Source: Alphaproteobacteria bacterium
GTDB lineage: Bacteria; Pseudomonadota; Alphaproteobacteria; Bin95
Assembly: GCA_965222315.1 (NCBI GenBank)
Contig: OZ244951.1
Coordinates: forward strand, 962,407 to 1,026,406
Length of the DNA: 64,000 bases
Direction: 5' to 3'
Both the position numbers and the translations under genes were made by a program. Below are positions 4,506-58,466 of this stretch, in pieces (position 1 is the stretch's first letter; each line of letters begins with the position of its first letter). The notes under the pieces are model-generated. The model was not told where the DNA came from and ran no database searches. It saw nothing but the letters and a program-made list of their open reading frames with translations.

Positions 4506-4579
4506 ATCGGGCCGACAGGCCCGACCCTAGCATTCTGGACCTTCCTCGCAATCGAACGAACCACCAAGGAGCAATGTTG

Positions 4580-8070: not shown

Positions 8071-8084
8071 GGAAGGAGACTTTC

Positions 8085-37873: not shown

Positions 37874-38710
37874 CTATGACCTAAGGTGGGAGGACAAGGC
37901 CAATACCGCGATCTTGGTCCGGTTATCGACTTGCAACTTCCGCATTAAGTGGCGCACATGCAGCTTCACCGTCGATTCCGACAGGTTAAGCTCCCGCCCA
38001 ATGGCTTTGTTGGACAGGCCGCGTTCCAGTCCGTCCATCACATCAATCTGGCGCGGAGTCAGGTGGACCGTTTGCTTACCAACCTGCACCCCGATGCTCG
38101 GTTCGTCATCGCTCGCGGTCTCGTTAGGGGACAGGCAGGTACAGGATTCCGGCACGTGTTGTTCGGTCGGGGAGGGGATATGCGAACAGGGAGTCCCGTT
38201 CGCCAAGGGCCGGCTGTCCGCACCATTCTGCGCTACCGCCGTTTGCGTTGCGTGCTCGATACCGTGCGGGATTGACTTCGAATTCGGGTAGTAGTGTCCG
38301 CCTGCCTGTATGAAGTGAATGGCGGCGACTGCGAACTCGGACGGCATCCAGGTCGGAATTACGCCACGCACCTCGTGGGCGATCGCTATCTCAATGCCCT
38401 CAGCATCAATCTCGTCGACCAGAACAACGAGAGGCCGCCCCGTGAGCGCCAGCAAGCAGCGTCTCAGGGTCAGTTCTACTTCGGGCTCAACGAGCGACCG
38501 GCCGCCGATCACATATACGCAAGCTGCCGTGCCCTCCGCAAAGACGGCCTTGCCGGTACTATCCTCAGGAACCTTATCGGTCCAGGTCACACTGAGGGCA
38601 AATTCCTTGGCATGCTCCGCCAAAAGCGCCGAGATTGCGGTGCCGCGCAGAACGTGTCCGTCAAGTACGATAATTTCTCTTGGTCCATCGAACACCGTAA
38701 CCTCCCCCAC
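37874..38710 (-). CDS. LuxR-family transcriptional regulator with an atypical receiver-like N-domain (278 aa).
   Basis: C-terminal HTH LTPRQIDVMDGLERGLSNKAIGRELNLSESTVKLHVRHLMRKLQVDNRTKIAVLA. No obvious phospho-acceptor Asp context at the N-terminus. Confidence 0.65.
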   Translation of the reverse strand: MGEVTVFDGPREIIVLDGHVLRGTAISALLAEHAKEFALSVTWTDKVPEDSTGKAVFAEGTAACVYVIGGRSLVEPEVELTLRRCLLALTGRPLVVLVDEIDAEGIEIAIAHEVRGVIPTWMPSEFAVAAIHFIQAGGHYYPNSKSIPHGIEHATQTAVAQNGADSRPLANGTPCSHIPSPTEQHVPESCTCLSPNETASDDEPSIGVQVGKQTVHLTPRQIDVMDGLERGLSNKAIGRELNLSESTVKLHVRHLMRKLQVDNRTKIAVLALSSHLRS

Positions 38711-40629: not shown

Positions 40630-42131
40630 GCCAACATTAGTTCCTCATAGAGAGCAGCATAGCGCTGCGCCGAGAGCTCTGAGGTGAAGTACGTTTCAAC
40701 TCGCTTGCGCAGTGTTTCGCCGCACCGCCGGCGCAGGTCGGCGTCACCCAGCAACTCTGCAATGGCCTCCCCGATTGCCTTGGCGTCCATTACCGGTGCG
40801 ACGCGGCCGGCAATACCAAGGTTTGGCACCTCGTCTGGCGCTCCTTCGATGATCTCCCGGCAGGACCCGACGTCGGTGGTAACGCAGGGCACCCGCGCCG
40901 CGCCAGCCTCAAGCAGTACCAGTGGTTGCGCCTCGCTGATTGAAGTAAGCACCAGGACGTCGATGCGGCCTAGATAGTCAACGATGTTGACTTTGCCCGT
41001 GAAAACAATGGTCTCCCCGAGGTCGAGTTCGTCAATCCGCCGCTTACAAAGTGCGAAATAGTCCTCGTCTTCATCGGTTGGCCCAATCAATAAAAACTCT
41101 ACGTCGGGGATCACGTTTCGCACAACTGCGGCGGCAGCGATGAAGGCCTCGATGTCCTTGATTGGCACTACGCGGCCGATCAGTGCCGCTGTTGGCCGCT
41201 TTGCCTGGCCAGACTCGATACTGTCGAAACGCTCGAGCTCAATGCCATTAGGGATAACCTGTAGCGATTTCTCACGCGCGCCGAGGGTTCGCTGGAACGA
41301 CTGGTTGGCGCCGTAGAGGGTGGTCACCTTGTCGGCGCCGGAATAGACAGCGCGAGCATAAGACTCAAAGGTCTCGATCCAGAAGGCCCTAACGTCAGTT
41401 CGTCCCTCGCTGCCAAGGCCTGTTCTGACGGTGTCGGCAATCCAGTCTGCCATCACCAGATCAATGCGGCGCTCGTTTGTGTAGATACCGTGCTCAGTGA
41501 TAGCTGACCGGGCTCCGTTCCGACCCGCAGCGCGGACCGCGAAAACCCCGGCATAGCCGGTCGAGATCGCATGATATACCCGCGCCGGTGGCGTTGGTGC
41601 CATGACTACGGAAAGCATGCCTCCAACGAGGTTCTGCCAAGCCCAAAAGAAGTCCGAAAAGGATGCATGCGGGGCGATCCGTTGGTAGCAGGTCACCATA
41701 GCAGCCCAGGCGGGCTCCGAGCACAATAGGTCCGAGTAACTGGGGGGCGTTCGCCGCAATAGCCGGCCGAGACCGGAGCGCCGCACAGGCTTTACCGCCA
41801 TCTCGGCCAATGCGTGAACCGCCTCAACGTCCCCCTCGCGGACAACCCGATAGAGCAGGTCGGCGAACGCCTCCACATCAATCAGCGGCCGCGACAGACC
41901 AGGTCGCTCAAGTTGGTGGGCGAGTGGCACCGTTTGGAAGTACGCCACATTATCCGGCAACTGGTACTTTAATTCGCGCGGCCGGTCGTCGGCGACCAGC
42001 GCGACGACTCCAAAGGCGGTGTTGGGTTGGTTTCGTATCAGCCAGTCCAACCACGACGACACGCCGCCCGCAATATACGGATAGCAGCCTTCGACAACGA
42101 TGCAGACATCCAATGTATTTGATGCACTCAC
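40626..42131 (-). CDS. pelF: PelF-like GT4 glycosyltransferase (501 aa).
   Basis: N-terminus LDVCIVVEGCYPYIAGGVSSWLDWLI matches the remembered PelF start (DVCLLLEGTYPYV.GGVSSWV). GT4 C-terminal E-x7-E region. 4-nt overlap with the pelG-like gene. Confidence 0.6.
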   Translation of the reverse strand: MSASNTLDVCIVVEGCYPYIAGGVSSWLDWLIRNQPNTAFGVVALVADDRPRELKYQLPDNVAYFQTVPLAHQLERPGLSRPLIDVEAFADLLYRVVREGDVEAVHALAEMAVKPVRRSGLGRLLRRTPPSYSDLLCSEPAWAAMVTCYQRIAPHASFSDFFWAWQNLVGGMLSVVMAPTPPARVYHAISTGYAGVFAVRAAGRNGARSAITEHGIYTNERRIDLVMADWIADTVRTGLGSEGRTDVRAFWIETFESYARAVYSGADKVTTLYGANQSFQRTLGAREKSLQVIPNGIELERFDSIESGQAKRPTAALIGRVVPIKDIEAFIAAAAVVRNVIPDVEFLLIGPTDEDEDYFALCKRRIDELDLGETIVFTGKVNIVDYLGRIDVLVLTSISEAQPLVLLEAGAARVPCVTTDVGSCREIIEGAPDEVPNLGIAGRVAPVMDAKAIGEAIAELLGDADLRRRCGETLRKRVETYFTSELSAQRYAALYEELMLA

Positions 42132-42931: not shown

Positions 42932-43902
42932 TGCGATATCTGCTGATGATCTGAACAGGAGACCGGTCTGAGATGGATTGCCGGCCGGGAGTTATAGAAT
43001 GCCAATGCAGCTGCCAGTGCGACGGTGCACGTGACTGGCTCAGGCGACAGGATGGTTGAAGCGCTTTGATCCTCGACAATCGCGGCGCCGCCGCTATCTG
43101 TTATGGAGGCCGGGCGCCCGCGTGGCATTATCGTTACTAGGAAACCGCTGTTTCCTACGCCGACGGCAACCTCAGTGCCATCGGCAACGGCCCTCTCATT
43201 GGTTCGTCCGGCTGATGTCAGCCGACGTAGTTCCTCTGCTTCACATGCTGTCAATTTGAGCCGTACACCAACACCCAATGGCTCGTCGTCCCCGGCGTAG
43301 AATACTGCCCCCGCGAAACCAAGCGCCTCTGTAGCCTCCGTAAACTTGGCCTCGAACGACTCAGTGTCGGCCATTGCCAGCACCGACAGCGCTGGCAAGC
43401 TTCGCTCTACGCCGCCCGCGTGCGTAGTAGTAGCGATCTGCAACTCAAGCGCCGCGACGTCGCTATCCATACGATTTACTTCGGTGGCCAGATCCTCACT
43501 CATTCGCCTAAGCCGCGCGTTCTCGGTCCTAAGCTCCGCCTCCAGCCGGATCTGTGCTTGGCGGATTGAGCCAACAATGATCGCCATGAGAAGCCATTGC
43601 ACCGGAAGGATGGCGAGTTCAACGTAGTGGGCAGTGATGTCGATGCCAGCAGGCCGTGGCGGCCAATCCATGAGCAGTGCTGCCATTGCCGCAGTCGACA
43701 CGCCCACATAGAGGCCGCCCTGCACGGCGGCGAGGATCACGAAGAGCCAGTATGGATGAATTGTTAGGGCTGCGTAGAACCCTTCCCCGAAAAACAGCGG
43801 CTCAGCCGCCCGAGCCACGAGCAGCAAGACCACAGCGCCGAGCAGGCTGCGAAGGAACGGTTCATGTTCATTCGGTAAGTAAGGCTCTGATCCGGCGGTC
43901 AT
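42928..43902 (-). CDS. PelD-like membrane protein (4 TM plus cytoplasmic domain, 324 aa). It is shorter than canonical PelD, so the degenerate GGDEF module is possibly absent.
   Basis: Four N-terminal hydrophobic helices followed by a soluble domain. Operon position upstream of the pelE-like gene. Confidence 0.35.
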   Translation of the reverse strand: MTAGSEPYLPNEHEPFLRSLLGAVVLLLVARAAEPLFFGEGFYAALTIHPYWLFVILAAVQGGLYVGVSTAAMAALLMDWPPRPAGIDITAHYVELAILPVQWLLMAIIVGSIRQAQIRLEAELRTENARLRRMSEDLATEVNRMDSDVAALELQIATTTHAGGVERSLPALSVLAMADTESFEAKFTEATEALGFAGAVFYAGDDEPLGVGVRLKLTACEAEELRRLTSAGRTNERAVADGTEVAVGVGNSGFLVTIMPRGRPASITDSGGAAIVEDQSASTILSPEPVTCTVALAAALAFYNSRPAIHLRPVSCSDHQQISQ

Positions 43903-45578
43903 TTTGCGTCGTTTGCCGCTATACGCGATGACACTGGAATAACCAGATCACGCGAAGGGTTGAGATCGACCTCAGAGGCCGCCGGAACCTCGACCGGCCT
44001 GCTGTCGTCGCGGGTCATTGCAACCGTGACCAGATCTCCCGGCCGCACCGGCGTCTCTGGCGCTGCGATGAAGCGCTCAATGCCACCGGGCTCCGTACGC
44101 AGGATTGTTACGGTGAAGGTCTGTTCATCACTATGGTCTCTCGCCTCAAGTTGGGCTTGCACTGTGTTCAACTGCTCACGCACCGACGATCGTTCCATGG
44201 CGGTCGCCCGCGCAGCCATCGCCAACCTTTTGCGGCGCTCCGCCCGACGTACCGCCGCCTCTTGCCGAACAAGATTTAGTTCGGCTGTGAGGTTCAGGAG
44301 CACGTCCCGGCGCTCGAGTACCGTGCGCTCCATTGCCATCATCCGATCCTTGGCCACCTTGACCTTGTTCTCGGTGGTAATGCCCTGACTGCGTCGCTTT
44401 GCAACCGCCTCGTAGTGTTCGGCGAGGTAGGCTAGCTGCGATTTAATAACCTCGAGATGCTCTTGCGCTGCCGAGATCCGGACATCTAGGACGTCGATCC
44501 GATCCGAACTAAGATCATTTCGTACCTTCTCCTCGGCGAGCTCCGCGAGGAGGACGCCACGCTCGGTCTTGACCCTGTCAGCACCGATTGTTTTGGCAAG
44601 GGTTTCCCAAGCCTGGGTGTTGGTCGCAAGCTCAATGTCGTCGGCAAGTGCGGCGTCGATCCGGACCCGTTCGAGCATCAGACCTGCAGCAAGCGCGTCC
44701 AACTCCTGCTGGCGGGCGCGCAGGGCGGCCATCTGTAACGGCGAGAGAAGTTCAGCCCTCTCGATCGCACCCGCCTGAGCAAGCACGCGCTCCACCGTGA
44801 GACCCGGCGAGTAGGCATGCGTCCCCGGCGCTCGAACCATGCCGCGCACCAGTATTGGAGGGCGCGACGCGAACGCGGCGCTGACGCTTCCGTTCAGCCG
44901 CAGACGCTCGCTTGCGGCACGTGTTACCAGCAGCTCAATACAGGGAAGGCTGCGATTGATGACATCGACATGCCCAATGGCCGGTAAAGATACAGCGCCG
45001 TTCGCCCCGACTTCATAGGAACCCGACAGGTCGAGCCGCTCAAAGACAATGTTCTCGCTTCTCGATGCGCCGTTTGTAGAGGGTGCCGCTGCCAGCGTAC
45101 TTTGCTCAAAGAAGCGCAAGGCAAGGCGGTCGCCAAGAACTGCGACATCGATACCGCCCCCTACCTGGTCACACATCCCAATGTTTTGGGAGTTGGACGC
45201 CCCCGCTTGCGGCAGGGCCAAAGCGCTGACGCCACCTAGTTTCTCCGCTTCCTTTTCGCGGTCCTTTGTGCTGCGATCAAGCTGATAATTTCCGGCGGGC
45301 ACGTGAGTGGCGATGACTTTGTCTGTCGCATTCGCAATGCCCACGTCGTTCTCCGCGTTCAGCCAGTGCTCAATGAAAGCTGAAAGTCTGTTTCCGCCAT
45401 CGGAAGCGAAAGACTCCAAGTGGCTGATTGCGGTCGACACGGGTTTGATAATGACCCCCGTACCATATTCCGAAACGATTTTATCAGTTGCGATGGCGGC
45501 CATGCCGACGCCCACTAGAGTTATTGAGCCAAAGATCCGACTGAAACCTCGCCAGTTCATTCCGAACTCCTCCAACAA
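43899..45578 (-). CDS. Polysaccharide export protein (Wza/ExoF-like, with SLBB domains and a long central coiled coil, 559 aa).
   Basis: ..LDLSGSYEVGANGAVSLPAIGHVDVINRSLPCIELLV.. polysaccharide-export motif. C-terminal SLBB-like PGDLVTV. First gene of the minus-strand polysaccharide operon. Confidence 0.5.
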   Translation of the reverse strand: MLEEFGMNWRGFSRIFGSITLVGVGMAAIATDKIVSEYGTGVIIKPVSTAISHLESFASDGGNRLSAFIEHWLNAENDVGIANATDKVIATHVPAGNYQLDRSTKDREKEAEKLGGVSALALPQAGASNSQNIGMCDQVGGGIDVAVLGDRLALRFFEQSTLAAAPSTNGASRSENIVFERLDLSGSYEVGANGAVSLPAIGHVDVINRSLPCIELLVTRAASERLRLNGSVSAAFASRPPILVRGMVRAPGTHAYSPGLTVERVLAQAGAIERAELLSPLQMAALRARQQELDALAAGLMLERVRIDAALADDIELATNTQAWETLAKTIGADRVKTERGVLLAELAEEKVRNDLSSDRIDVLDVRISAAQEHLEVIKSQLAYLAEHYEAVAKRRSQGITTENKVKVAKDRMMAMERTVLERRDVLLNLTAELNLVRQEAAVRRAERRKRLAMAARATAMERSSVREQLNTVQAQLEARDHSDEQTFTVTILRTEPGGIERFIAAPETPVRPGDLVTVAMTRDDSRPVEVPAASEVDLNPSRDLVIPVSSRIAANDAK

Positions 45579-45630: not shown

Positions 45631-48030
45631 ATGAAGCAAAATAATAAGACCATCAACTCTGCACATGGATTAAGGGGGGTCGCTTTAGTATTGGATACTA
45701 ACCACCTAAAAGAAGTATATCCGTTAGTATTGCGCTCCATTTGGTTTAGGTTCCGGCTACCCCTTTTGGGATTTAACCTGGCTAGCGCCCTGTCTCTTGC
45801 GGCAGTCACTCTCCTGTCTGTGCCGGGAGTTGCCGCCGCAGCTTGCCGCGATGTCGCAGAGATCCCGCGCACGATCCTTGCGCTCTATGACGGTGCGCGC
45901 AGTGCTGAGCCACGTTACACACCCATTCACCGCTACGCCGAGATGCCGCTCAACCATCTCGGTTACCGCCTCGTCTACCACGATATTTCGACTGGCACGC
46001 CGCCGCCGCCTGACGCTCCACTGGCCGCCACCATCTCATGGTTCAACGGGGCAGTCGGCGATCCAGTCGGCTTTGCCACATGGCGCGCCGGATTCAAGGA
46101 CAGATGCGGCCGGGCACCGGCAACGATCGTGTTTGGGCATACCGGACTCACCAGTGCCGCAGCCGCGACAGAATCAGGTGCCGTCTACCTGAAAAGTTTC
46201 GGCGCAAAGCAAGCCGATGGAGACCTATCGGTCGGCCCGCTCACTTCGATCGCATTACTCGATCCTGGGACTATCGGATTCGAGACGGCGTTCGAGATCG
46301 CGAGAGGACCATACTCTCGTATCACCACTACGGACGAGGCCGAAAGTCGCCTCCGCCTATTGAGCGGCGATGCTGCGATCGATCTAGTGGTTCTGGCCCC
46401 GCAGGCGGTATATGCACACGATAGCGCTCTGGTCAGACACGACCCACGCGGCGGCCCGCTCTGGACCGTTGATCCGTTCGTCCTCTTTGCACACGCGCTC
46501 AACGGATCTCCGTGGCCCATTCCTGATACCACTACACTTAGCGGCCGGCGGATGTTCTTCGCTACTTTGACGCCGGAGGGCTGGTTGACGCAACTGCCGG
46601 CGTTGCAGTTCGGCGACCGCCCTCCGCTGGCATCCCAGGTCTTAGAATCCGCCTTGATTTCACAGTATCCCAGTCTTCCGTTTAGCGTCGCTCTGCTCGC
46701 GGGCGACCTTGATCCTAGCATTGCAGGGCCGGCTGCTTCGCGCGGCCGCGAAGCTGCTGTCCGTCTGTTGCAACTTCCCCACGTACAGCCGGCGACCATG
46801 GGTTTGACCATGATCCTGAATTGGGGATTTTTCGCAGAGTATGATGCAGAGGCGGAGTCTGCCGCGCTCGCGACCGGCGCAGCGCACCAGGCCGGTAGGG
46901 GCGTCCTGGTTACTGCCGTACAGAACCTCGGCACCGCGTTTTCCGAGCCTGCTGTCTCAGCACTGGACATTACACCGAACGCACCGCGCAAGTACAGCAG
47001 CGTGTCCTTTGACCTTGCCTCCGAAACCCGTGGCGCCCTCGACCGCATCGCTGCGCTGGCGCCCCCTAATCGCGCACCGCAGCTCTTCGTTTGGGGCGGG
47101 AATTCACTGCCATTTCCTGGTGCCATCGCCGCGACACGCGAAGCCGGTGCTTGGAACATGGGCGGCGGTGGCGGGCGGGCGTCGAACACAATGCCTTCAC
47201 TCTCGAACTTATGGCCGCTCGGTCTCGAAACCTCCGGCGGCCTCCAAGTCTACAACGCGCTGAGCGGCGACGCCGTTTACACTGATTTCTGGACCGGCAA
47301 CCTAATTGGCTTCCAGGCTCTAGCGCAAACCCTTGAGAGCACTGAGTTCCCGCGTCGGCTCAAGCCCTTCCAAGTATCGTTCGCTGCCCAATCGGCGCTC
47401 GCTTTCTCCAGCCTTCAAAGCGTTCGCAGCAACCTCGATTTGGCGCTCACGGCAAAGATCGCCCCGGTCCATGCGCTCCGCTATGCTGAGACTGTTGCTG
47501 GTTTCCAGGGTTTCCGCGTTATTGCCGGTGACGGTGGCCGCACTTGGCGTATCAAGGACCGTGGCGGACTGCACACGGCCCGCTTCGATGCCGCTAAAGG
47601 GCTTGCGCTCGACCTAGCCGAAAGTGACGGTGTGATCGGTGCGTCCCGCCATAATGGCTCTCTCTATGTGGGACTCGACCCGGGCAACGACTCACCGCAA
47701 ATCGTACTCGCCGATACCGACACGCCAGCCGCCATGGTTGGGGTGGGTTCGGCGCCGGCGCTGATACAGGCACGCGCGGAAATTCTCGACTTCAAGCGCG
47801 AAGGCTGCGCTGTCCGAGCCACTTTGCTTGGCTTTGACGTTGCAGATACAGAGTGGCTCGCTTCGTCCGGCCTAAGCTACGAAGTTACGCTCTACGAGGC
47901 TGACGGCGTAACACGGCGGCACTGGCAGCAGGTCACAGCCGGTCCCGATGGCCATATGGCGGTGGACCTCCCGTTGCCATCGGGTTTCCCTACCCAAATG
48001 TCCATCACTACGCCCTGTCCGCAAGGTTAG
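45631..48030 (+). CDS. Large secreted/periplasmic hypothetical protein of the polysaccharide locus (~800 aa). The start is uncertain (ATG 45631 or TTG 45730); the track ORF start of 45307 overlaps the convergent gene and is rejected.
   Basis: Signal-peptide-like RSIWFRFRLPLLGFNLASALSLAAVTLLSVPGVAAAA. No confident domain assignment. Confidence 0.4.
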   Translation: MKQNNKTINSAHGLRGVALVLDTNHLKEVYPLVLRSIWFRFRLPLLGFNLASALSLAAVTLLSVPGVAAAACRDVAEIPRTILALYDGARSAEPRYTPIHRYAEMPLNHLGYRLVYHDISTGTPPPPDAPLAATISWFNGAVGDPVGFATWRAGFKDRCGRAPATIVFGHTGLTSAAAATESGAVYLKSFGAKQADGDLSVGPLTSIALLDPGTIGFETAFEIARGPYSRITTTDEAESRLRLLSGDAAIDLVVLAPQAVYAHDSALVRHDPRGGPLWTVDPFVLFAHALNGSPWPIPDTTTLSGRRMFFATLTPEGWLTQLPALQFGDRPPLASQVLESALISQYPSLPFSVALLAGDLDPSIAGPAASRGREAAVRLLQLPHVQPATMGLTMILNWGFFAEYDAEAESAALATGAAHQAGRGVLVTAVQNLGTAFSEPAVSALDITPNAPRKYSSVSFDLASETRGALDRIAALAPPNRAPQLFVWGGNSLPFPGAIAATREAGAWNMGGGGGRASNTMPSLSNLWPLGLETSGGLQVYNALSGDAVYTDFWTGNLIGFQALAQTLESTEFPRRLKPFQVSFAAQSALAFSSLQSVRSNLDLALTAKIAPVHALRYAETVAGFQGFRVIAGDGGRTWRIKDRGGLHTARFDAAKGLALDLAESDGVIGASRHNGSLYVGLDPGNDSPQIVLADTDTPAAMVGVGSAPALIQARAEILDFKREGCAVRATLLGFDVADTEWLASSGLSYEVTLYEADGVTRRHWQQVTAGPDGHMAVDLPLPSGFPTQMSITTPCPQG

Positions 48031-48037
48031 CACAACA

Positions 48038-49390
48038 ATGCAGCGCTATACTTTCGCTCTCGTTGTCGTTTGCGTCTTCGCCATCTTTGCGGTTTTCCTG
48101 TTAAAACCTGACCCGGCCACCAAACTTGAAGCCGAGCTCGCTCGTATGGCGCCAGATGAAGCCCTTGCGCAGCTTGATGCGCTGAAGGGCGACATCGCCT
48201 TTACCGAAAACCTGCAGTTGATGCACGCTCGGTTGGCAGCTTCGGCAGGTAATTTTGAGACCGCTCAGACCGCCTACGGTCAAGTCATCGACATGGGTGG
48301 CCCGACTTCCCAGATGCTTGATGAGCTTGCGGAAGTCGCTGTGCTGGCTGGCGATCTTGGCAGGGCGGTCAATTATAAGGCGCAAGCTCAGGCGCTTAGC
48401 CCCAATGCCGAACGGCGGCAGACCTTGGGCTACTGGTACCGCTTGCTTGGCGATGATGTCAGAGAGACCGAGCTTCTTTCGGCAACCGTGCCGCGCCGCC
48501 TGACTACGTTTGAGCGAGAGCGTCTGGGCGAGCTTTATCTCGATGCTGGCAATGTTGATGCCTACCGCAAATTGCTTACGGCAATATCGGAGTCCAATGA
48601 TAATGACGCGCCTTTGGCGCGCCGGCAACTTCTCGAACTTAACATTGAGGCCGGTGAGCCGGATGTGGCGCTCCAGCAAGCGCTCGACTGGCTTACTGCC
48701 GCACCACACGATGGCGATGGACTTGAGGTAAGCTTGAAGACGTTCGTCGGACGTGGCGCACTCGATGCGGCGGTTGAGCTGGCAATACGCGCTAACGAGA
48801 TCAATGCGGAGTTGGGCGCCGTCACGGCAACGGTTTTCATTGGCACTGGCCATGGTGGCGTCGGCCGCCGCATGTTGGCGCTGTGGCTCGCCAGCGATCC
48901 CGCCCTCGATAACAAAGACTGGCAAGTACTCATTCGGATCATTGGCCAAACCGGCGACCTGAGCGCCCTCCGGCGGGCGCTTGCCCGCGGCGGAAGCAGG
49001 GGAGGGTCGAATGACGTGCGGGCACCGGCTGCTGCCTTTCTACAAATCTTGCGCTACCAAGGTGCTCGTGCTTTGTCACCCTATCAAAGTATGATGACGA
49101 GCAAAACATTCGAAGACGTGCCGCTGGTCGGAGCGGCGTGGTATGGGTGGCGCCGGCAACCGCAAGAGACTTACGCCTACCTGCTGTCCGCTGCAGCGGG
49201 GCCTCTAACTGACTGGGACCGCGCTATTTGGATGTTAGTTGCCAGTGACCTGCGCGGCACGCCGTTTTATCGGGAATTGTTGGCTGGTGCGCCGGACGAT
49301 GCTGGGTTGCGCGAACTCCTTCACCGCGGTATCCGCCCGCCCGTGCCTATTCCTTCCCGTGCAGGGCAATCGGCGCCCACAAGCGATTGA
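48038..49390 (+). CDS. TPR-repeat protein with an N-terminal membrane anchor (450 aa).
   Basis: Start at ATG 48038 (MQRYTFALVVVCVFAIFAVFLL). Helical repeat composition. Polysaccharide loci commonly include TPR scaffolds (PelB/PelE-like). Confidence 0.45.
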   Translation: MQRYTFALVVVCVFAIFAVFLLKPDPATKLEAELARMAPDEALAQLDALKGDIAFTENLQLMHARLAASAGNFETAQTAYGQVIDMGGPTSQMLDELAEVAVLAGDLGRAVNYKAQAQALSPNAERRQTLGYWYRLLGDDVRETELLSATVPRRLTTFERERLGELYLDAGNVDAYRKLLTAISESNDNDAPLARRQLLELNIEAGEPDVALQQALDWLTAAPHDGDGLEVSLKTFVGRGALDAAVELAIRANEINAELGAVTATVFIGTGHGGVGRRMLALWLASDPALDNKDWQVLIRIIGQTGDLSALRRALARGGSRGGSNDVRAPAAAFLQILRYQGARALSPYQSMMTSKTFEDVPLVGAAWYGWRRQPQETYAYLLSAAAGPLTDWDRAIWMLVASDLRGTPFYRELLAGAPDDAGLRELLHRGIRPPVPIPSRAGQSAPTSD

Positions 49391-50531
49391 AGCTGTGATC
49401 CTCGACAAGATAAGGATAGAAACCGGTGATTTGCGCCTCTTTCGCCAGAGTCTGACGCAGGTCGGTGAAATCCTCGGTGCCAGCGCGCGACACCACGTCC
49501 AGGGTCAAGACTTTTAGGCCGTAGTCGAGAAAATCACTCTTCACTACAACGCGGGTACTGGGGTTTGCCATTGGTGACAGGACGTTCTCGACCGTAACTG
49601 CGTCGATAGCATCGCGGTAACTGTCGAACACAGACTTAGTGCTATTATCCGTCAATGCCTCAGCCGCGTCGCGGCCGATAAAGACGCCATTGTTGGCAAA
49701 GACTAAGGCGTTACAGTTCCATTCCCGCACACGCTCGGCGATCGCGACCACCAGTTCCATCATCGCCCGGGCGAGGCCAGGCGCGTCCCGCGGCCCCTCT
49801 GGCCACCCTGAACGGGGCCAGCGCAAATTGGTGCCTTTTGCGTATGAGTAGTAGTGCAGCACGTCATCCAGAAACAGACCGTCAATACCCGACTCCATCA
49901 ACCGGTCGACCCGCGCCAATATCACGTCGCGCCAGGCTGGCATCCAATAGGCGGCCAGGTGGTCGCCGTGACCAGCGTGTGGTCCGTACCACTGAGGCAG
50001 CTCCACACTATCGTCCGGCACGCTCTGCATCACGAAGTCGATCCAGTAATCGCGATAGTTCTCAATCTCGCTGACGTTCAAATAGCCCAACACCGGACGC
50101 TCACCATCGCGCGAGATTATGGCGATTTCGTCGGAAGTGAAGAACACTTCTCTCCCCGATTCGCTATGCAGCGCACCTACCTTCGCTACCTCGATGATAA
50201 GGAGCCCATGTGGCTGCTCGGTCAGTCCCTCAGCGGTGTAGTCTTCGCCCCAGTATTGCACGCCGAAACCACCTGCCAGGGCTCGGGTAAGATGCATAAA
50301 GCGCCTGCGGCTGGCGCTTGGCTTGCATGGTATTCCTGAGGGCTCCAATTTGTTTGCAACTGCTACTCCGTCAACCGCTGCAACCTCGGGAGCAGGGGCT
50401 TCAGCCAGAACTCCTTGTGTCGCGGGTGCCTCCTGCGCACCGGCATCCTGAAGCAGCACCAGCGCGCCGGCACACATCGCAAGCATCCAAACCAACAGCC
50501 CCATCATTGTAGCCTGCGTCTCGATCGTCAT
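49347..50531 (-). CDS. GH114-family (TM1410/COG3868-like) polysaccharide hydrolase with a signal peptide (~395 aa).
   Basis: Start at the internal M (MTIETQATMMGLLVWMLAMCAGALVLL). A TIM-barrel GH114-like motif GIDGLFLDDV is seen. The family call is recall-based. Confidence 0.4.
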   Translation of the reverse strand: MTIETQATMMGLLVWMLAMCAGALVLLQDAGAQEAPATQGVLAEAPAPEVAAVDGVAVANKLEPSGIPCKPSASRRRFMHLTRALAGGFGVQYWGEDYTAEGLTEQPHGLLIIEVAKVGALHSESGREVFFTSDEIAIISRDGERPVLGYLNVSEIENYRDYWIDFVMQSVPDDSVELPQWYGPHAGHGDHLAAYWMPAWRDVILARVDRLMESGIDGLFLDDVLHYYSYAKGTNLRWPRSGWPEGPRDAPGLARAMMELVVAIAERVREWNCNALVFANNGVFIGRDAAEALTDNSTKSVFDSYRDAIDAVTVENVLSPMANPSTRVVVKSDFLDYGLKVLTLDVVSRAGTEDFTDLRQTLAKEAQITGFYPYLVEDHSFNRLWAPIALHGKE

Positions 50532-50761: not shown

Positions 50762-52588
50762 TCACTCGACGGTCACCGATTTTGCGAGGTTTCGGGGCTG
50801 GTCCACGTCGGTCCCGCGCGTAATGGCAGCGTGATAGGCAAGGAACTGGATCGCTACGGCGTAAGAGAAGGGCTCAATCAGCGCATCGGCATCGGGGAGC
50901 GCGACGCAGCGCCAGGCGGCATCCCCGAAATCACGGCAGGCGGTGGCGCTGCCGATGACCGCAACTCTGCCCTTGCGCGCGACCACCTCGCGCAGGTTCG
51001 ACAGTGTCTTGTCCATCAACTCGCCAGCCGGCACGAGGGCGATTACCGGCGTCGCCTCATCAACGAGCGCGATGGGTCCGTGCTTAATCTCGCCTGCTGC
51101 GTAGCCTTCGGCGTGAATGTAGGTGATCTCCTTCAGTTTGAGAGCACCTTCGAGCGCCAGCGGGAACATCATTCCCCGGCCGAGGAAGAGCACGCTGCTC
51201 GCGACCGAAATCTCCGCCGCGAGGTCAGCGAAGTGAGGTTCAAGCGCAATTGTTTCGGCCATCACCCGTGGCACGCTTGAAAGCGTCTTGATTGCCGCTT
51301 CTTCATCGTCTGCGTCTAGCATCCCGCGTCGGCGGGCCACCATCAATGTGAATGCCGCAAGACATATCATCTGGGCCGTGAAGGCCTTGGTCGAGGCGAC
51401 GCCGATCTCGGGTCCGGCATGGGTCGCCAGGACCACATCAGCCTCCCGGGCGATTGTTGACGTGGTGACGTTGACAAGCGCGAGTATCTTTTGGCCCGCA
51501 GCCTTGGCATAGCGCAGCGCCGCCAACGTATCAGCGGTTTCGCCGGATTGACTGATCACCATGGTCAAGTCGCCCGCAGAAAGTGGCGGCTCGCGGTAGC
51601 GGAACTCCGATGCGACCTCAATTTCGACCGGAAGCCGCGCTAGTTTCTCTATCCAAATTTTGGCCACGTGACCGGCCAGATAGGCCGTGCCGCAGGCGAC
51701 AATGGTGAGGCGGCTTACTGTAGACCAGTCAATCGCTTCGGCCGCCGATCTGACCTGGCTGCGATCGGCCGAGGTCCACGCGCCAAGCGCCCGCGCCGCG
51801 ACAGTCGGCTGTTCACTGATCTCCTTTGCCATGAAGTGGCGGTGTTCGCCCTTGTCAGCAAGGAGGCTTTCCAGCGGCACCGTCTGAACTGGCCGCTCGA
51901 CCAGGGACCCCGAGGCATCGTGGATACCCACCCCGCTCCGCGTCACGACTGCCCAGTCTCCGTCCTCCAGGTAGCATATCCGGTTGGTCATCGGCGCCAA
52001 TGCAATGGCATCCGAGCCGACGAAAACCTCGCTTTCTCCGAAGCCGATGACCAATGGCGAACCGCGCCGCGCGCAGATCAGCATGTCAGGTGCGTTCTCA
52101 AACAGGAAGCAGAGCGCATACGCGCCTTTAAGCCTTGCCAAGGTTTCCTTCGCTGCTTCTTCGTGGCCAAGACCGAGCCGGAGCAGTGCAGCGCAGAGCG
52201 TCGCGATGACCTCGCTATCAGTCTCGGACTCGAACGTAGCGCCTGCCGCAGCCAACTCCGATCTCAGTGTTTGGTAGTTCTCAATGATCCCATTGTGTAC
52301 CACGCACACCGGTCCTGAGCGGTGCGGATGGGCGTTCGACTCGGTCGGGCTGCCGTGGGTTGCCCATCGTGTATGACCGATGCCGCTGCTGCCAGGGAGT
52401 GGATTCTGGTCGAGTAGGTCAATCAAGGCTGCAAGTTTGCCCTGAGCACGCCGCCGATTAAGGTGGCCGCAATCGACAGCTCCCACACCGGCGCTATCAT
52501 AGCCGCGGTACTCAAGCCGCCGTAACGCATCAACCACGATCGGGATTGCCGGTCTTTCGTTGGCCAGGACGCCGATGATACCGCACAT
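50762..52588 (-). CDS. glmS: Glutamine--fructose-6-phosphate aminotransferase.
   Basis: N-terminal MCGIIGV (Cys2 nucleophile). Two SIS domains. C-terminal ..KSVTVE. Length 608 aa. Confidence 0.9.
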   Translation of the reverse strand: MCGIIGVLANERPAIPIVVDALRRLEYRGYDSAGVGAVDCGHLNRRRAQGKLAALIDLLDQNPLPGSSGIGHTRWATHGSPTESNAHPHRSGPVCVVHNGIIENYQTLRSELAAAGATFESETDSEVIATLCAALLRLGLGHEEAAKETLARLKGAYALCFLFENAPDMLICARRGSPLVIGFGESEVFVGSDAIALAPMTNRICYLEDGDWAVVTRSGVGIHDASGSLVERPVQTVPLESLLADKGEHRHFMAKEISEQPTVAARALGAWTSADRSQVRSAAEAIDWSTVSRLTIVACGTAYLAGHVAKIWIEKLARLPVEIEVASEFRYREPPLSAGDLTMVISQSGETADTLAALRYAKAAGQKILALVNVTTSTIAREADVVLATHAGPEIGVASTKAFTAQMICLAAFTLMVARRRGMLDADDEEAAIKTLSSVPRVMAETIALEPHFADLAAEISVASSVLFLGRGMMFPLALEGALKLKEITYIHAEGYAAGEIKHGPIALVDEATPVIALVPAGELMDKTLSNLREVVARKGRVAVIGSATACRDFGDAAWRCVALPDADALIEPFSYAVAIQFLAYHAAITRGTDVDQPRNLAKSVTVE

Positions 52589-52712: not shown

Positions 52713-55700
52713 CTAGGCAATCAGAAGCGGATCGACAACGAAGATGTAATTGACGTCAAGCTGAGCAGCGCTGATGCCGGAGAGCTGAACGCTTCCGCCC
52801 TGGTAGGTCAGAGTGGCTCCACCGGAACTGTCGAAAAAACCGTCCAAAACATCGGCGGCTAGGGCATAGCCTACGTCCTCGAACTCCAGGATGTCGGCGC
52901 CGACGACGAAATCGTCGATCGTATCGTCACCGTCGCCGCCTCGGAAGACAAAGGTATTCTGTCCGCCTTGACCGCTAAGAATGTCATTACCGCTGCCGCC
53001 CTCCAGCCGGTCATCTCCGAGACCGCCTTCCAGGGTGTCGTCGCCCAGCCCGCCAAGCAGCAGGTCGTTGCCCTCCTGGCCGCGAACCGTGTCGGCGTTG
53101 CTGCCGCCGATCAAGATGTCGTCCGTAGCGCCACCGTTCAGGGCGGTGGTAGCCGCCTCCATGTCGAGCGCAACGCTGTGTTGCCCGCCAGCGTTAAAGC
53201 TGAGCACCAGATCGCCATCGACCGCAAAGCGGGCGAAGTCAGCGCCGGTGACAGCGACCGTCTGGCTGCCTTGGGTTTGAAGTCCGATGTGTACGTCGCT
53301 CTGGCCGTCGAAGTCGAAATTCAGATCGGTGCCGTCGCCCGACAGCAAGATCAAATCGTTGCGCTGCCCCAGATCGTTAACATGAGTGACGTCGGCAGGC
53401 GTCGTGCCGAGCACGATCTCAAAGGTTCCGCCGGTCTGCGGCAGGAAAACGCTGGTATCATCGTAAGCGTACCATCCCGTGACGCTGTCGATTGTGCCCT
53501 CGCTGCTAACGTCCAGCGCAAAGCGCCCGGCGTCGGAAGACGTGACAGAGGCGGTGAGAATGTTCCCCGACCGCGACGTGGTAAGGCTCGATGTCCCAAA
53601 GCTCGCGATACGATCCGCCAGATCGGCTCCGGTGACAAATTCTGCGCCGTCTGTCGCGGCCTGCCCAATCAGTGCCTCGAACATCTGAAGCGTGTAGTTG
53701 GTGGGGTCGCCGATATCCCAATTCGTCGGGCCGTAATCGTGCCAGGGAAACGCAATGATCGGCGCGGTCGCATTGCTGGTGATCTCAGCGTACTCGTCCA
53801 GCCAAACCGCGGCCGCCTCCGCCGGTGTCAATCCCTGGAACCCGATCAGCGAAAAGTCGAAGCTCATGTTGGGGGCTAGGTATACCGCCCCTGTCTCACT
53901 CGGCGTCACAAAGCCGAAGGCGCCTGGATAGCCCGCGCCGGTGCCGGAGAAACCTCCCGAGAGATAGTCGTAAAAGCGGATTATCTCGCGTGTCGTGTCG
54001 ATATTCTCTGGCGCGCCAGGCACTGCTGCGCCTGCCACATTGATGCCGAGTTCATGCTCGATTATCAGTTTGGAGGTCTCGAACTGAAAGCGGTACGAGG
54101 AGAAGAGAAGATCCTGCTCCGCCTGTGTCAGCGTGGAGGGATCGACCGCGTTCGGATTGCGCGGGTCCACCAGGGCGACCAGCGCTAGAATTTCCGGCGT
54201 GTCGGGCAGGAGCTCGTTGGTATCATGTGGATGAGTGTAGGAGTGCGAGCCGATCTCGCTCTCCAATGCGAGGATCGCGTCGTAGTATGGCTTCGAGACA
54301 GTCCAGTCAGTGTACTGATCGGGCGGGTTCGCGCCGATGTCGATGTAGTATGAGCCGACAAAGCCCCAGGTGTCGTACCAGTTCTGGATGATTGGCAGCA
54401 TCGCGTCGTAAATGCTTGGGTCCTGCTCAATGACGTCCCACGACTCCTGCGCCTGATCCATATCGTTGCGCGAGTAGAACAGCGACGAACCGCGGGTTAT
54501 CAGCAGCGACACGTCCGGCGCGTTGTCTGTCGATACCCAGTCAATTGCCTCGCCAAGGATGTTGTTGTTGCCGATGATCGCGTCCGTGGCGAAGTGGACG
54601 TTGCGCGCCACGTTCTGGGTCGCAATCACCGCGTCAAGGGTCGCTGTCCCGCCGGTAGGGGTGGTTACAACTTGGTCGAACAGTACCTGACCAGCCCCGG
54701 TCGTGTCAGTGAAGTTTAAGTAGGAGAGGTTGTCGTAGGCGCCCACAAGCTGGCCGTTGGTATAGCCGTTGAGGATAGGGTGCCCCGCCCCCGTGGCGAC
54801 CAAGTCTACCCCATCGGTCTGCCCGAAACCCTCTAGCGTGACACCGAGAAGCGACGACATCCGCGCATACGAGTTTCCAGGAAGCGCCGCGCCGGTCTCG
54901 TCATTGGTCAGGAAATTGCCCGCAGCGATCAGGCCGACCCCGTAATTGCTCTGAGCGTCGGCAAGACTGGTTGCGATGGCGTCGACTTCAGCACTCTTGA
55001 CATGGCTGAACCCGGGAAAGACCAAAGCATCGTACTGGGCCAGGTTCGCCGGGTCGATGAGGTCTCCCTCGGTCAGCAGATCGAACGGGATGCCGGCCTG
55101 CATCGCCTGGTTCTGCATCGACATGAACAACTGGCCGTAGTTCGTTATGTTGTAATAGTTTGCCGCGGTGGTGTCGGAATAAACAATGCCGATCCTGAGT
55201 TGCGGGTCGTCGACCGGTCCGCCGGTCGGTGCCGGGTGGATCACCAGGTTTGCCCCGGCATACGAGTCGGGCATGAAGATGTGCTCGTTAACATCGGCCA
55301 GAACTCGAACTGAGGTGGGGGTGCCGGCCATCAGCCCTTGCGGCAGCGCCACCTCCAAGCCTGACCCATCCGCTGCGAGGCTGAAGTCGAGATCGGCGAC
55401 AAAGGTCGCACCGGCGCCGCCGGAATAAAGCTTGGCGACACCGTCCACACCGATGTTGATGTTGTACTCTGCGCCGCCGGCCCAGCCCCAGATCTGGTGG
55501 CCGGTAGCAGTGTCGCGGTCGGTGTCGATCCAAATCGTGGTGTTGGCGCCGATCGCCGCAAGCTCGCTCTCGATCGCCAAAACGAACACGTCGCCCAGTG
55601 TGGCGTCCTGCTCGATCGCGCCGTAGAGCCGATAACCCCCAGGTTGCTGCCCGGCGCCGGTCTCGAACAGAAGCTCTGAGCCGAGCCACTCTCCGGGATC

Positions 55701-56744
55701 AATCACCCCGTCGAGCGTCTTTCCGCCGGCTACGACTATTGGCACGGACCCTATGATAAAGTTGGCAAGCGCGTAATCGTTCGGCAGGTACACACTGTCG
55801 TTGACGTCGCTATAGATGCGAACCGCATTGGGCGATCCCATCAGCGAGCCGTCGATGGCGAGCTCGAGCGTGGCGCCGTCTGTGGACAGGGCGTAGTCGA
55901 TGTCGCCAATCAGCGTCTGGCCCGCCGCCCCGGAATAGAGCCGCGCTACGCCATCAGCCCCGAAGTTGACGTTGTACTCCGCGCCGCCGGACCATCCCCA
56001 AATCAGATGACCGCTCGCCCGGTCGAGATCGGAGTCGATCCAGATTGTGGTATTCGCGCCAATGGACAGGCCGTCGGTGGTGATCGCGACCGTGTAGACG
56101 CCGCCTTGCAGATCGCCGTAGATGGCATAGCCCGGCATGCCGGTTCCAGGCCCGTCGAGCCGCGCCGACGCTGCCCATTCGCCAATATCGCCGTCGAGCG
56201 TCTTCCCGCCGGCGACCACCGGCGGCACGTCGTCTATGATAAAGTTGGCAAGCGCGTAGTCATTCGGCAGGTAGACACTATCGTTGACATCGCTATAGAC
56301 GCGGATCGCGTTGGGCGATCCCATGAGCGAGGCGTCGATGGCTAGTTCGAGCGTGGCGCCGTCTGCGGAGAGCGCATAGTCGATATCTCCGACCAGAGTC
56401 TGGCCTGCCGCGCCGGAATAGAGCCGGGCCACGCCATCAGCTCCGAAATTGACGTTGTACTCCGCGCCGTTGGACAGGCCCCAGATCTGATAGCCGGTCG
56501 TTCGGTCTAAATCGGCATCGACCCAGATCGTGGTATTCGGGCCAATGGACAGGCCGTCGGTGGTGATCGCGACCGTGTAGACGCCGCCTTGCAGATCGCC
56601 GTAGATGGCATAGCCCGGCATGCCGGTTCCAGGCCCGTCGAGCCGCGTTGAGGCTGCCCATTCGCCAATATCGCCGTCGAGCGTCTTTCCACCGATGATG
56701 ATACTCATCTGACCGAACCTGTTCGGCATGAAGTGATCAGGCAA
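52713..56744 (-). CDS. Giant secreted multi-domain protein (1343 aa). It has three N-terminal ~161-aa tandem repeats, a central carbohydrate-active-like domain (HS-x-x-HP motif) and C-terminal RTX GGxGxD calcium-binding repeats; a probable T1SS substrate.
   Basis: Repeats GGKTLDGDIGEWAAS(T/A)RLDGPGTGMPGYAIYGDLQGGVYTVAITTDGLSIG.NTTIW.D.DLDR..G..IWG.S.GAEYNVNFGADGVARLYSGAAGQTL.GDIDYAL.(A/T)DGATLELAID.SLMGSPNA.R.YSDVNDSVYLPNDYALANFII occur three times. C-terminal LLGGLGDDTLEGGLGDDRLEGGSGNDILSGQGG. Confidence 0.65.
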   Translation of the reverse strand: MPDHFMPNRFGQMSIIIGGKTLDGDIGEWAASTRLDGPGTGMPGYAIYGDLQGGVYTVAITTDGLSIGPNTTIWVDADLDRTTGYQIWGLSNGAEYNVNFGADGVARLYSGAAGQTLVGDIDYALSADGATLELAIDASLMGSPNAIRVYSDVNDSVYLPNDYALANFIIDDVPPVVAGGKTLDGDIGEWAASARLDGPGTGMPGYAIYGDLQGGVYTVAITTDGLSIGANTTIWIDSDLDRASGHLIWGWSGGAEYNVNFGADGVARLYSGAAGQTLIGDIDYALSTDGATLELAIDGSLMGSPNAVRIYSDVNDSVYLPNDYALANFIIGSVPIVVAGGKTLDGVIDPGEWLGSELLFETGAGQQPGGYRLYGAIEQDATLGDVFVLAIESELAAIGANTTIWIDTDRDTATGHQIWGWAGGAEYNINIGVDGVAKLYSGGAGATFVADLDFSLAADGSGLEVALPQGLMAGTPTSVRVLADVNEHIFMPDSYAGANLVIHPAPTGGPVDDPQLRIGIVYSDTTAANYYNITNYGQLFMSMQNQAMQAGIPFDLLTEGDLIDPANLAQYDALVFPGFSHVKSAEVDAIATSLADAQSNYGVGLIAAGNFLTNDETGAALPGNSYARMSSLLGVTLEGFGQTDGVDLVATGAGHPILNGYTNGQLVGAYDNLSYLNFTDTTGAGQVLFDQVVTTPTGGTATLDAVIATQNVARNVHFATDAIIGNNNILGEAIDWVSTDNAPDVSLLITRGSSLFYSRNDMDQAQESWDVIEQDPSIYDAMLPIIQNWYDTWGFVGSYYIDIGANPPDQYTDWTVSKPYYDAILALESEIGSHSYTHPHDTNELLPDTPEILALVALVDPRNPNAVDPSTLTQAEQDLLFSSYRFQFETSKLIIEHELGINVAGAAVPGAPENIDTTREIIRFYDYLSGGFSGTGAGYPGAFGFVTPSETGAVYLAPNMSFDFSLIGFQGLTPAEAAAVWLDEYAEITSNATAPIIAFPWHDYGPTNWDIGDPTNYTLQMFEALIGQAATDGAEFVTGADLADRIASFGTSSLTTSRSGNILTASVTSSDAGRFALDVSSEGTIDSVTGWYAYDDTSVFLPQTGGTFEIVLGTTPADVTHVNDLGQRNDLILLSGDGTDLNFDFDGQSDVHIGLQTQGSQTVAVTGADFARFAVDGDLVLSFNAGGQHSVALDMEAATTALNGGATDDILIGGSNADTVRGQEGNDLLLGGLGDDTLEGGLGDDRLEGGSGNDILSGQGGQNTFVFRGGDGDDTIDDFVVGADILEFEDVGYALAADVLDGFFDSSGGATLTYQGGSVQLSGISAAQLDVNYIFVVDPLLIA
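55130..56680 (-). repeat. Three tandem ~483-nt coding repeats; the first two are nearly identical at the DNA level.
   Basis: The off-frame ORFs 55954-56178 and 56437-56661 encode near-identical peptides 483 nt apart. This matches the in-frame protein repeats. Confidence 0.75.
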
Positions 56745-58465: not shown

Positions 58466-58466
58466 G

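Follow-up and report, generated by a model that had tools for sequence, protein, structure and literature searches.

The window analyzed here, a stretch of 64,000 nucleotides (64 kb) from contig OZ244951.1 of an Alphaproteobacteria bacterium, carries a minus-strand open reading frame (ORF) of 1343 codons that spans 52713..56744, counted from a TTG at 56744. Its product combines N-terminal tandem modules, a predicted polysaccharide deacetylase core and C-terminal RTX repeats, and its gene, referred to below as the RTX deacetylase gene, heads a Pel-like exopolysaccharide cluster whose polymer the product probably serves. The original prediction, made from the sequence alone, had placed a 1343-aa ORF at this position; the ORF exists, while its minus-strand orientation was missed and the publicly recorded product is 1331 aa long. 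The candidate starts are TTG 56744, ATG 56729 and ATG 56708. For the 1331-aa product of ATG 56708, which begins MSIIIGGKTLDG..., the public protein collection has an exact entry, assigned to a contig of 5,157,465 bp, and neither the TTG-start nor the first-ATG version has an exact entry there. The ATG 56708 start also fits the N-termini of the family, since the module lies at the extreme N-terminus in 109 of 120 homologs and mostly starts at residue 1-4, leaving no signal peptide; in the RTX deacetylase itself no N-terminal Sec or Tat signal was found, and the MSIIIGGKTLDG start runs directly into module 1. Residue numbers of the RTX deacetylase given below follow the TTG numbering. The protein is acidic (isoelectric point 4.05) and has 0 cysteines, and its nearest relatives are found in an alphaproteobacterial metagenome-assembled genome (MAG; 85%) and in Rubellimicrobium roseum (72%). 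A scan for promoters and terminators around the gene returned nothing exceeding shuffled expectation. Directly upstream lies an IS3-family insertion sequence (IS) element (57206-58841, minus strand), and a fragment at ~57240-57420, reading ...EYATLEWVDWFNNRRLLEPIGNIPPAEAEANYY, resembles the C-terminus of IS3 OrfB. A 97%-identical metagenome scaffold (L001) aligns to the window from 57906 down to 56640, and the shared stretch takes in the IS fragment and a portion of the rve ORF.

The Predicted Deacetylase Core

Searches of Pfam, NCBIfam and PDB sequences with the RTX deacetylase recognized only the RTX part of the protein. A search with residues 480-1190 recovered more than 500 homologs, many of them named "polysaccharide deacetylase family protein" with precomputed PF01522 hits, and with tails made up of RTX, cadherin or "M10 C-terminal" domains. 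Modeling of the central ~700 residues with AlphaFold2 (AF2), based on an alignment of 44 homologs, gave a confident core (predicted local distance difference test, pLDDT, 92.1; predicted TM score 0.91) that comprises an alpha/beta domain, a (beta/alpha) barrel and a beta-sandwich. Against the PDB, Foldseek matched this model to the human NDST1 N-deacetylase (9f6z) over ~590 columns (E 1e-10), to the GATase1-like domains of glycoside hydrolase family 42 (GH42) enzymes and GMP synthase, and to members of carbohydrate esterase family 4 (CE4) with E-values of 1e-8 to 1e-5 (HpPgdA 3qbu, ArnD 8t0j, PdaC 6h8l). The 44-homolog profile, when compared with PDB sequences, had all of its matches in CE4 chains, near motif 2 (E 0.003-0.1). 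Nine residues are invariant in the 44 homologs, which share 44-71% identity: R759, D761, D763, H834, S835, H838, D963, H1002 and D1003. Taken together, the model identifies the central region as a NodB-fold (CE4-superfamily) metal-dependent deacetylase in which HSYTH is the predicted metal-binding motif 2. By motif alignment, D761 would act as the base, D763, H834 and H838 as metal ligands and H1002 as the acid, with R759 in place of the base-activating His of PelA. The resemblance of SHSYTHPHD to CE4 motif 2 that had been pointed out in the original prediction is borne out by the invariance of H834 and H838 and by the CE4 matches of both model and profile, and the central domain did not prove to be an unrelated fold. 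In the Polysacc_deac_1 scan that had been proposed there as a check, PF01522 was unmatched at E<=0.01, though some homologs carry a precomputed hit. Canonical CE4 membership was rejected for this reason, and also because motif 1 reads R-N-D-M-D rather than TFDD and the barrel sits inside a three-domain core.

That three-domain core recalls deacetylases of N-acetylgalactosamine (GalNAc) polymers. In Agd3 (CE18), a CE barrel stands between a GATase1-like domain (CBM87) and a beta-sandwich; in PelA (CE21), the hydrolase domain is followed by a "reductase-like" domain of GATase1/GIFT type, then by a CE domain and a beta-rich domain; and PelA_DA of Bacillus cereus (CE26/CBM114) has a similar three-domain layout. 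The three domains of the RTX deacetylase follow this order, its GATase1-like domain standing where Agd3 has CBM87 and PelA its "reductase-like" domain. The PelA motifs are H526-x-D528-x-D530, followed by H600/H604, E723 and H761. In hhalign comparisons with a PelA alignment, built from the PelA of a B. thailandensis plasmid with a canonical pelABCDEFG operon, the GATase1-like domain was matched with a probability of 63%, motifs 1-2 with E 3e-4 and E 1.8e-5 (FYSRNDMDQ with FMSHVDGDG; EIGSHSYTHP with EIGSHTYSHP), and motif 5 plus the beta domain with E 4e-5 and with E 8e-4 over 177 columns. The global mode of hhalign gave nothing useful, and a profile search of PDB sequences gave no match to PtPelA (9cgy) at E<=10. 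The motif geometry of the RTX deacetylase is close to that of B. thailandensis PelA, with 73 as compared with 72 residues from the Asp base to the first His (133 in Agd3), 168 vs. 163 from the first His to the catalytic His, and 39 vs. 38 from the acid to the catalytic His. CE18 fragments from the supplement of the Agd3 paper matched the RTX deacetylase at E 0.009, in the GATase1-like domain only, and Rhodobacter, Paracoccus, Methylobacterium and Sphingomonas, the four genera checked, are all absent from the Agd3 homolog tables. Membership in Agd3/CE18 was ruled out by motif 1, the motif spacing and the weak profile score. The RTX enzyme is best described as an unclassified lineage of Agd3/PelA-type three-domain deacetylases that is nearest to PelA in motif geometry; it is not filed under CE18, and membership in CE21 is not claimed.

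A Pel-Like Cluster with a Degenerate PelA Homolog

The original prediction viewed the gene in isolation, and overlooked a Pel-like cluster with a catalytically dead PelA homolog; in this context the gene is more interesting than as an isolated RTX protein. The cluster extends from ~56.7 kb down to 37.9 kb and is headed by the RTX deacetylase, with most genes on the minus strand (Table 1). The pelF and pelG genes are recognized well above their family cut-offs. The GH114 gene scored below the cut-offs of both Pfam GH114 (E 9e-4) and TIGR01370 (76 bits), and its homologs are named endo alpha-1,4 polygalactosaminidase. Two plus-strand genes, encoding a tetratricopeptide repeat (TPR) protein and the PelA homolog, sit between the GH114 gene and the Poly_export-like gene. 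The positions of PelB through PelE are taken by the TPR protein, which is possibly an analog of the TPR part of PelB, by the Poly_export-like protein and by two membrane proteins. The gene order is repeated on plasmid pORIO1 of Cereibacter azotoformans and on scaffold L001. A plasmid of B. thailandensis (L003, 15055-19592) carries a canonical pelABCDEFG followed by GH114, glmS and galE, the same accessory set, and its PelA is annotated as "sugar ABC transporter."

The PelA homolog at 45691-48030 aligns with residues 255-822 of B. thailandensis PelA (BLASTP E 1e-30), and all of its key catalytic positions are substituted (H481T, D483T, D485E, H555M, H559M and H718A), in agreement between the pairwise BLAST alignment and a MAFFT alignment of 22 sequences. 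An equal catalytic loss was found in 14 of the 15 PelA orthologs that adjoin RTX-deacetylase genes, the sole intact one belonging to a Rhodocyclaceae MAG; the pseudo-PelA orthologs occur in loci L005-L035 and are conserved across the Rhodobacterales. Judged by these substitutions, the PelA homolog is a catalytically dead pseudoenzyme, kept beside the TPR protein, and its loss of catalysis would leave the deacetylase role of the cluster vacant. A "split PelA," in which the RTX protein would represent the deacetylase half of PelA, was considered and dropped when tblastn found this clearer PelA homolog at 45.7-48.0 kb on the opposite strand.

The linkage is not restricted to this window. A pattern scan of GTDB species genomes recovered 305 stretches that encode relatives, of which 78 loci were analyzed, 49 of them with full flanks; they derive from Rhodobacterales, Devosia/Pelagibacterium, Methylobacterium, Mesorhizobium, Sphingomonadales, Acetobacteraceae, Rhodocyclaceae and several cyanobacteria, and neighbors were counted within 10 kb of the deacetylase homolog. 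At least one of pelF, pelG or GH114 was present in 54/78 loci and in 39 of the 49 with full flanks. Among the 78 loci, a GalE/PelX-type epimerase was found in 37-40, glmS in 26 and a GlmM-like mutase in 15. PelA-like genes were found in only 14/78 loci, and outside the pseudo-PelA clade none lay within 10 kb of an RTX enzyme with pelF/pelG, which leaves the RTX-type enzyme as the sole deacetylase candidate beside pelF/pelG in those loci.

Two loci of other kinds are found elsewhere in the window. A complete-looking extracellular contractile injection system (eCIS)/PVC-like locus occupies 10942-36408 on the plus strand, with a Phage_sheath_1C sheath, a gp19-type tube, Pvc16_N, an AAA ATPase, eCIS_core, a Phage_base_V spike and Baseplate_J; its 1104-aa protein with DUF6519 and a beta-helix may be a tail fiber or effector. 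At 2398-9083 (plus strand), three paralogous DUF1254/DUF1214 proteins are interleaved with MetA-pathway outer-membrane and alkyl-sulfatase-like proteins, and are preceded by a MarR regulator and an LssY_C protein.

RTX Repeats and Type I Secretion

The C-terminal repeats, which the original prediction had taken as a signature of a type I secretion system (T1SS), can be retained as such. Pfam HemolysinCabind (PF00353) matched with a score of 44 bits, above its cut-off of 23 (E 1.5e-11), and the nonapeptides, a hallmark of T1SS substrates, follow a strict 9-residue register at residues 1204, 1213, 1222, 1231, 1240 and 1249 and, in degenerate form, 1258, with another at 1269. PDB matches of the RTX block include CyaA, lipase, serralysin and AlgE R-modules, and the block also matches EglC. 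By analogy with PrtD-type substrates, the ~66-aa C-terminal tail is a putative uncleaved T1SS secretion signal. Two downstream ORFs (628 aa and 431 aa) that were considered as a T1SS ATP-binding cassette (ABC) protein and adaptor were identified as glmS and the GH114-type hydrolase. Seven of the 78 loci have a gene for a T1SS-type ABC exporter no more than 10 kb from the deacetylase homolog. In the single one of these seven tested with NCBIfam, a Pelagibacterium chromosome (L070), the PrtD/HlyD pair was confirmed: both a PrtD-type ABC (TIGR01842, 647 bits vs. a cut-off of 510) and an HlyD adaptor (TIGR01843, 348 bits vs. a cut-off of 209) adjoin the deacetylase ortholog. Seven cyanobacterial loci, including L033, L034, L039-L041 and L052, show an unusual fusion of a response-regulator receiver to an HlyD-type adaptor beside the deacetylase homolog (605 aa; L041, 538-2355).

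The N-Terminal Repeat Modules

The N-terminus consists of three beta-sandwich modules. Tandem Repeats Finder reported a period of 483 nt with 2.0 copies (55708-56694, 87% matches, score 1540). Modules 1 and 2 are identical at 143/161 residues and 421/483 nucleotides, and module 3 has small insertions relative to both. Modules 1 and 2 differ in 35 synonymous vs. 18 non-synonymous codons, and 39 of the 62 base changes fall on third codon positions, a bias that indicates purifying selection on both copies. The triplicated ~161-aa module with a 483-nt period was thus described correctly in the original prediction as to the number of modules, whereas "nearly identical" overstates an 87% DNA identity between modules 1 and 2. 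Copy number varies widely in the family: among 76 genome-encoded family-cluster ORFs, 3 have no module, 37 have one, 9 have two, 17 have three, 8 have four, and one ORF each has five and seven. The Rhodobacterales orthologs mostly have three or four, including four in a 1441-aa ortholog on a complete Cereibacter azotoformans plasmid.

It is very improbable that the triplicated N-terminus represents an assembly artefact, an expanded or collapsed repeat that would render the gene model unreliable. The module copies differ at 13% of bases, mostly synonymously, the repeats keep an intact reading frame, a public record on a 5.16-Mb contig gives the identical 1331-aa product, and three or four modules recur in orthologs from many Rhodobacterales genomes, the complete Cereibacter plasmid among them. 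The observation that lends the idea some weight is a 100-N gap, exactly across modules 1-2, in the 97%-identical short-read scaffold L001, where the gene call is shortened to 1041 aa. The warning that the repeats are a likely site of assembly errors therefore applies to short-read data, and does not apply to the window, given the copy divergence, the purifying pattern and the usual three to four copies in Rhodobacterales; as far as the sequences tell, the three-module count is typical of the clade and no assembly artefact.

None of the 26 module-bearing members scanned matched a Pfam family within the repeat module. AF2 modeled the module confidently as an all-beta sandwich (pLDDT 93.4), and a fold search of the PDB with this model gave no significant match, the best being glucodextranase 1ug9 (E 9e-3, TM score 0.42) and the remaining ones immunoglobulin V-domains. 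The suggestion that the module is a carbohydrate-binding module (CBM) is therefore unsupported, and identity with a known CBM family was rejected, as no described CBM matched by sequence or fold. Its profile matches 594 cluster representatives among 1.84 billion proteins, nearly all of which belong to the RTX deacetylase family; an exception outside the family is a DUF4874/DUF4832 plus fn3 protein sorted by the type IX secretion system. The family defines a rare, uncharacterized beta-sandwich module with a copy number of 0-7, in which a D-x-D-x-N-x-x-T-G loop is conserved. In the closest MAG (L004, 14702-19144), a 1480-aa protein (P0327) consists of seven tandem modules without a catalytic domain; its gene lies just downstream of the deacetylase ortholog, which itself has ~640 extra N-terminal residues.

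The invariance of the full catalytic set at 44-71% identity makes it quite unlikely that the protein is mainly a structural RTX matrix protein or adhesin, whose modules and deacetylase-like groove would bind polymer or surface while catalysis is absent or secondary. The PelA homolog of the cluster, a true pseudoenzyme, illustrates how catalytic residues fare once the constraint on them is relaxed, and no LapA-type N-terminal retention module is evident, as the protein starts directly in a module. However, tandem beta-sandwich repeats of variable copy number would suit a structural role, some relatives add cadherin or Big domains in the manner of RTX adhesins, and the neighboring protein in the closest MAG is made of modules alone.

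Table 1. Features of the RTX deacetylase gene, its cluster and the upstream IS element (window positions; aa, residues in TTG numbering).
Feature	Position	Strand	Basis or remark
IS3 HTH_Tnp_1 ORF	58467-58841	-	upstream of RTX gene
IS3 rve integrase ORF	57575-58465	-	upstream of RTX gene
RTX deacetylase coding sequence	52713..56708	-	1331 aa; stop codon 52713-52715
Beta-sandwich module, copy 1	56211..56708	-	aa 18-178, 161 aa
Module, copy 2	55728..56210	-	aa 179-339, 161 aa; 89% aa and 87% nt identity to copy 1
Module, copy 3	55230..55727	-	aa 340-508; ~52% aa identity to copies 1 and 2
GATase1-like alpha/beta/alpha domain (predicted)	54522..55205	-	AF2; Foldseek GH42 GATase1-like and GMP synthase; hhalign PelA 63%
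NodB-fold deacetylase barrel (predicted)	53583..54521	-	invariant motif residues; Foldseek CE4
MT1 SRNDMD	54456-54473	-	barrel motif
MT2 HSYTH	54231-54245	-	barrel motif; SHSYTHPHD is aa 833-841
APNMSFD	53856-53876	-	barrel motif
PWHDYG	53730-53747	-	barrel motif
C-terminal beta-sandwich of core (predicted)	53175..53582	-	AF2; hhalign PelA beta domain E 4e-5, E 8e-4
RTX GGxGxDxUx nonapeptide block (6-7 tandem plus one)	52914..53135	-	Pfam PF00353
C-terminal ~66 aa after repeats, ending ...VVDPLLIA	52716..52913	-	sequence
glmS (glutamine--fructose-6-phosphate transaminase)	50762..52588	-	NCBIfam 782 bits; 608-aa call in L001; directly downstream of RTX gene
Standalone GH114/TM1410-type endo-alpha-1,4-polygalactosaminidase-like hydrolase	49347..50531	-	signal-like N-terminus
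TPR protein, ~450 aa	47948..49390	+	Pfam TPR_16 E 3e-4, below cut-off; kept in 20/78 loci
PelA homolog without hydrolase domain	45691..48030	+	BLASTP; hydrophobic signal-like N-terminus
Poly_export-like (Wza-type) protein	43899..45578	-	Pfam E 1.3e-4, below cut-off; polysaccharide export family in Cereibacter annotation
Two membrane proteins, 324 aa and 267 aa	42128..43902	-	in pelD/pelE position
pelF (GT4 glycosyltransferase)	40626..42131	-	NCBIfam PelF 398 bits vs. cut-off 100; Pfam DUF3492 and Glycos_transf_1
pelG	39196..40629	-	Pfam PelG 192 bits vs. cut-off 29
LuxR/GerE-type regulator at cluster end	37874..38710	-	Pfam GerE; response regulator at that position in Cereibacter

Discussion

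The present data allow a function to be proposed for the RTX deacetylase, to which a probability of about 60% is assigned: a T1SS-secreted, calcium-dependent extracellular polysaccharide de-N-acetylase that serves the Pel-like (GalNAc-type) exopolysaccharide of its cluster. This model proposes that the unfolded protein leaves the cell in a single step through a T1SS of the PrtD/HlyD/TolC type whose genes lie elsewhere, upon which extracellular Ca2+ would fold the RTX beta-roll and then the remainder of the protein. The folded enzyme could then partially deacetylate the exported alpha-1,4-GalNAc polymer, which would become cationic and adhesive. Agd3 deacetylates its polymer outside fungal cells, and PelA does so in the Pseudomonas periplasm; the extracellular action proposed here would parallel that of Agd3 and PelA_DA, and the use of a T1SS to deliver an enzyme acting on the exopolysaccharide of its own cell would parallel AlgE1-7 and the rhizobial glycanases. 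The dead PelA homolog may be retained, along with the TPR protein encoded next to it, as a scaffold for export in the periplasm, which is the role of PelA-PelB. The three N-terminal modules might tether or space the enzyme on the polymer or cell surface, which is the weakest step of the model.

Several observations weigh against the proposed function. No BLAST match to PelB, PelC, PelD or PelE of B. thailandensis was found in the cluster, and no galE/pelX-type UDP-GlcNAc 4-epimerase lies between glmS and GH114 at 50643-50761, although most of the relatives compared (L002 and 37-40 of the 78 loci) have one. The three profile matches to PelA are collinear but weak and patchy (E 1e-5 to 1e-3, probability 24-78%), and PtPelA, although contained in the searched PDB copy, fell outside the Foldseek top 50. 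The catalytic roles are drawn from motif alignment and not from the three-dimensional model. As the original prediction had also observed for ABC, membrane fusion protein (adaptor) and TolC genes, neither Pfam nor tblastn with a PrtD-type ABC revealed a T1SS ABC, adaptor or TolC gene among the large ORFs of the 64-kb window. A pel-type neighbor is missing from 10 of the 49 full-flank loci, and the literature searched contained no measured activity, secretion or polymer chemistry for any family member. Given the absent galE and the unrecognized PelB-E, the polymer may differ from Pseudomonas Pel; the epimerase is either encoded elsewhere or the polymer differs. An alternate scenario is that a secreted deacetylase acts on a substrate unrelated to the cluster, such as environmental chitin or chito-oligomers, the peptidoglycan of competitors or another capsule, the pel neighborhood being incidental. 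Besides the 10 full-flank loci just mentioned, this scenario can draw on the closest sequence-level PDB matches at motif 2, which are CE4 enzymes active on chitin, xylan or peptidoglycan, and on the cyanobacterial loci, where only 24-29% PelF-like GT4 matches were found. It is nevertheless considered unlikely, as the pel-type linkage reaches 80% of the full-flank loci and spans Rhodobacterales, Hyphomicrobiales and Sphingomonadales, genes for UDP-GalNAc supply are linked as well, the three-domain core is that of the GalNAc-polymer deacetylases Agd3 and PelA, and the dead PelA of the cluster leaves a vacancy to be filled.

A broader and more tentative proposal may also be entertained, one somewhat less probable than its negation. 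In Alphaproteobacteria, including Rhodobacterales, Pel-type deacetylation could have moved from the periplasm to the exterior: PelA would have lost its hydrolase domain and its catalysis and survived as an export scaffold, and an RTX-tailed paralogous or analogous deacetylase, delivered by a T1SS, would act after export. In Pseudomonas, Pel does not reach the cell exterior unless PelA has first deacetylated it in the periplasm, and efforts against biofilms are targeting PelA. Were the proposal true, periplasmic deacetylation would not be a universal prerequisite of Pel export in Gram-negative bacteria. A dead PelA and a T1SS-type deacetylase, with pelF/pelG kept, present a natural experiment on whether deacetylation must be periplasmic and on what PelA does apart from catalysis. 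The proposed function would also provide a testable substrate for a widespread family, found in at least 305 species genomes, whose members are now annotated as "hypothetical," "cadherin," "serralysin" or "M10 C-terminal domain." What is known already is a widespread family, annotated as "polysaccharide deacetylase" and uncharacterized, whose parts are themselves known. An Agd3/PelA-type core that is joined to RTX/T1SS delivery and to novel modules of variable number, with a dead PelA conserved in the same cluster, appears to be an undescribed combination that can be tested, and a literature search for an RTX-type Pel deacetylase found none.

Among known systems, Pseudomonas PelA offers the closest comparison. 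Both enzymes belong to clusters with pelF/pelG, share the order of GATase1-like, (beta/alpha)7 deacetylase and beta-rich domains in the C-terminal two-thirds, have x-D-x-D rather than DD in motif 1, and have the EIGSH(S/T)Y(S/T)HP and APN motifs in common. In contrast to PelA, the RTX deacetylase has no fused GH166 hydrolase domain, carries an invariant Arg instead of His two residues before the catalytic Asp, possesses extra N-terminal beta-sandwich modules, and bears RTX/T1SS-type signals for export to the outside where PelA is exported by Sec to the periplasm; moreover, a separate, clearer and catalytically dead PelA homolog is already present in its cluster. Agd3 of Aspergillus fumigatus is secreted and deacetylates a polymer rich in alpha-1,4-GalNAc outside the cell in a metal-dependent manner, as is proposed for the RTX deacetylase. 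The likeness to Agd3 is one of architecture, a compact GATase1-like domain with a CE barrel and a C-terminal beta-sandwich, and of gene neighborhood: Agd3-like deacetylases occur in bacterial pel-like operons alongside GH114, with Pel genes as further partners in Gram-negative bacteria. However, in Agd3 the two Asp of motif 1 adjoin each other (DD) and motif 2 follows at a distance of >120 residues, where the RTX deacetylase has DxD and 73; Agd3 also uses the eukaryotic secretory pathway without RTX repeats. PelA_DA of B. cereus, compared by description only, is likewise a stand-alone Pel deacetylase without a hydrolase domain, but has a single-pass transmembrane anchor and is encoded in a Gram-positive pelDEA_DAFG operon. 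The CE4/NodB enzymes (HpPgdA 3qbu, PdaC 6h8l, ArnD 8t0j) and NDST1 (9f6z), which are the best solved-structure matches, share the fold and the H-S-x-x-H motif, whereas the RTX deacetylase departs from them in its motif 1, which is not TFDD, in leaving PF01522 unmatched and in its large extra domains. With regard to delivery, the C5-epimerases AlgE1-7 of Azotobacter and the rhizobial glycanases ExsH/EglC and PlyA/PlyB are exported by T1SS and act extracellularly, beside or instead of a periplasmic counterpart. Their catalytic domains and polymers (alginate, succinoglycan and acidic exopolysaccharide) are different and none is a deacetylase, but they too are enzymes with C-terminal RTX repeats that tailor the exopolysaccharide of their own cell, and the AlgE R-modules and EglC are themselves among the matches of the RTX block.

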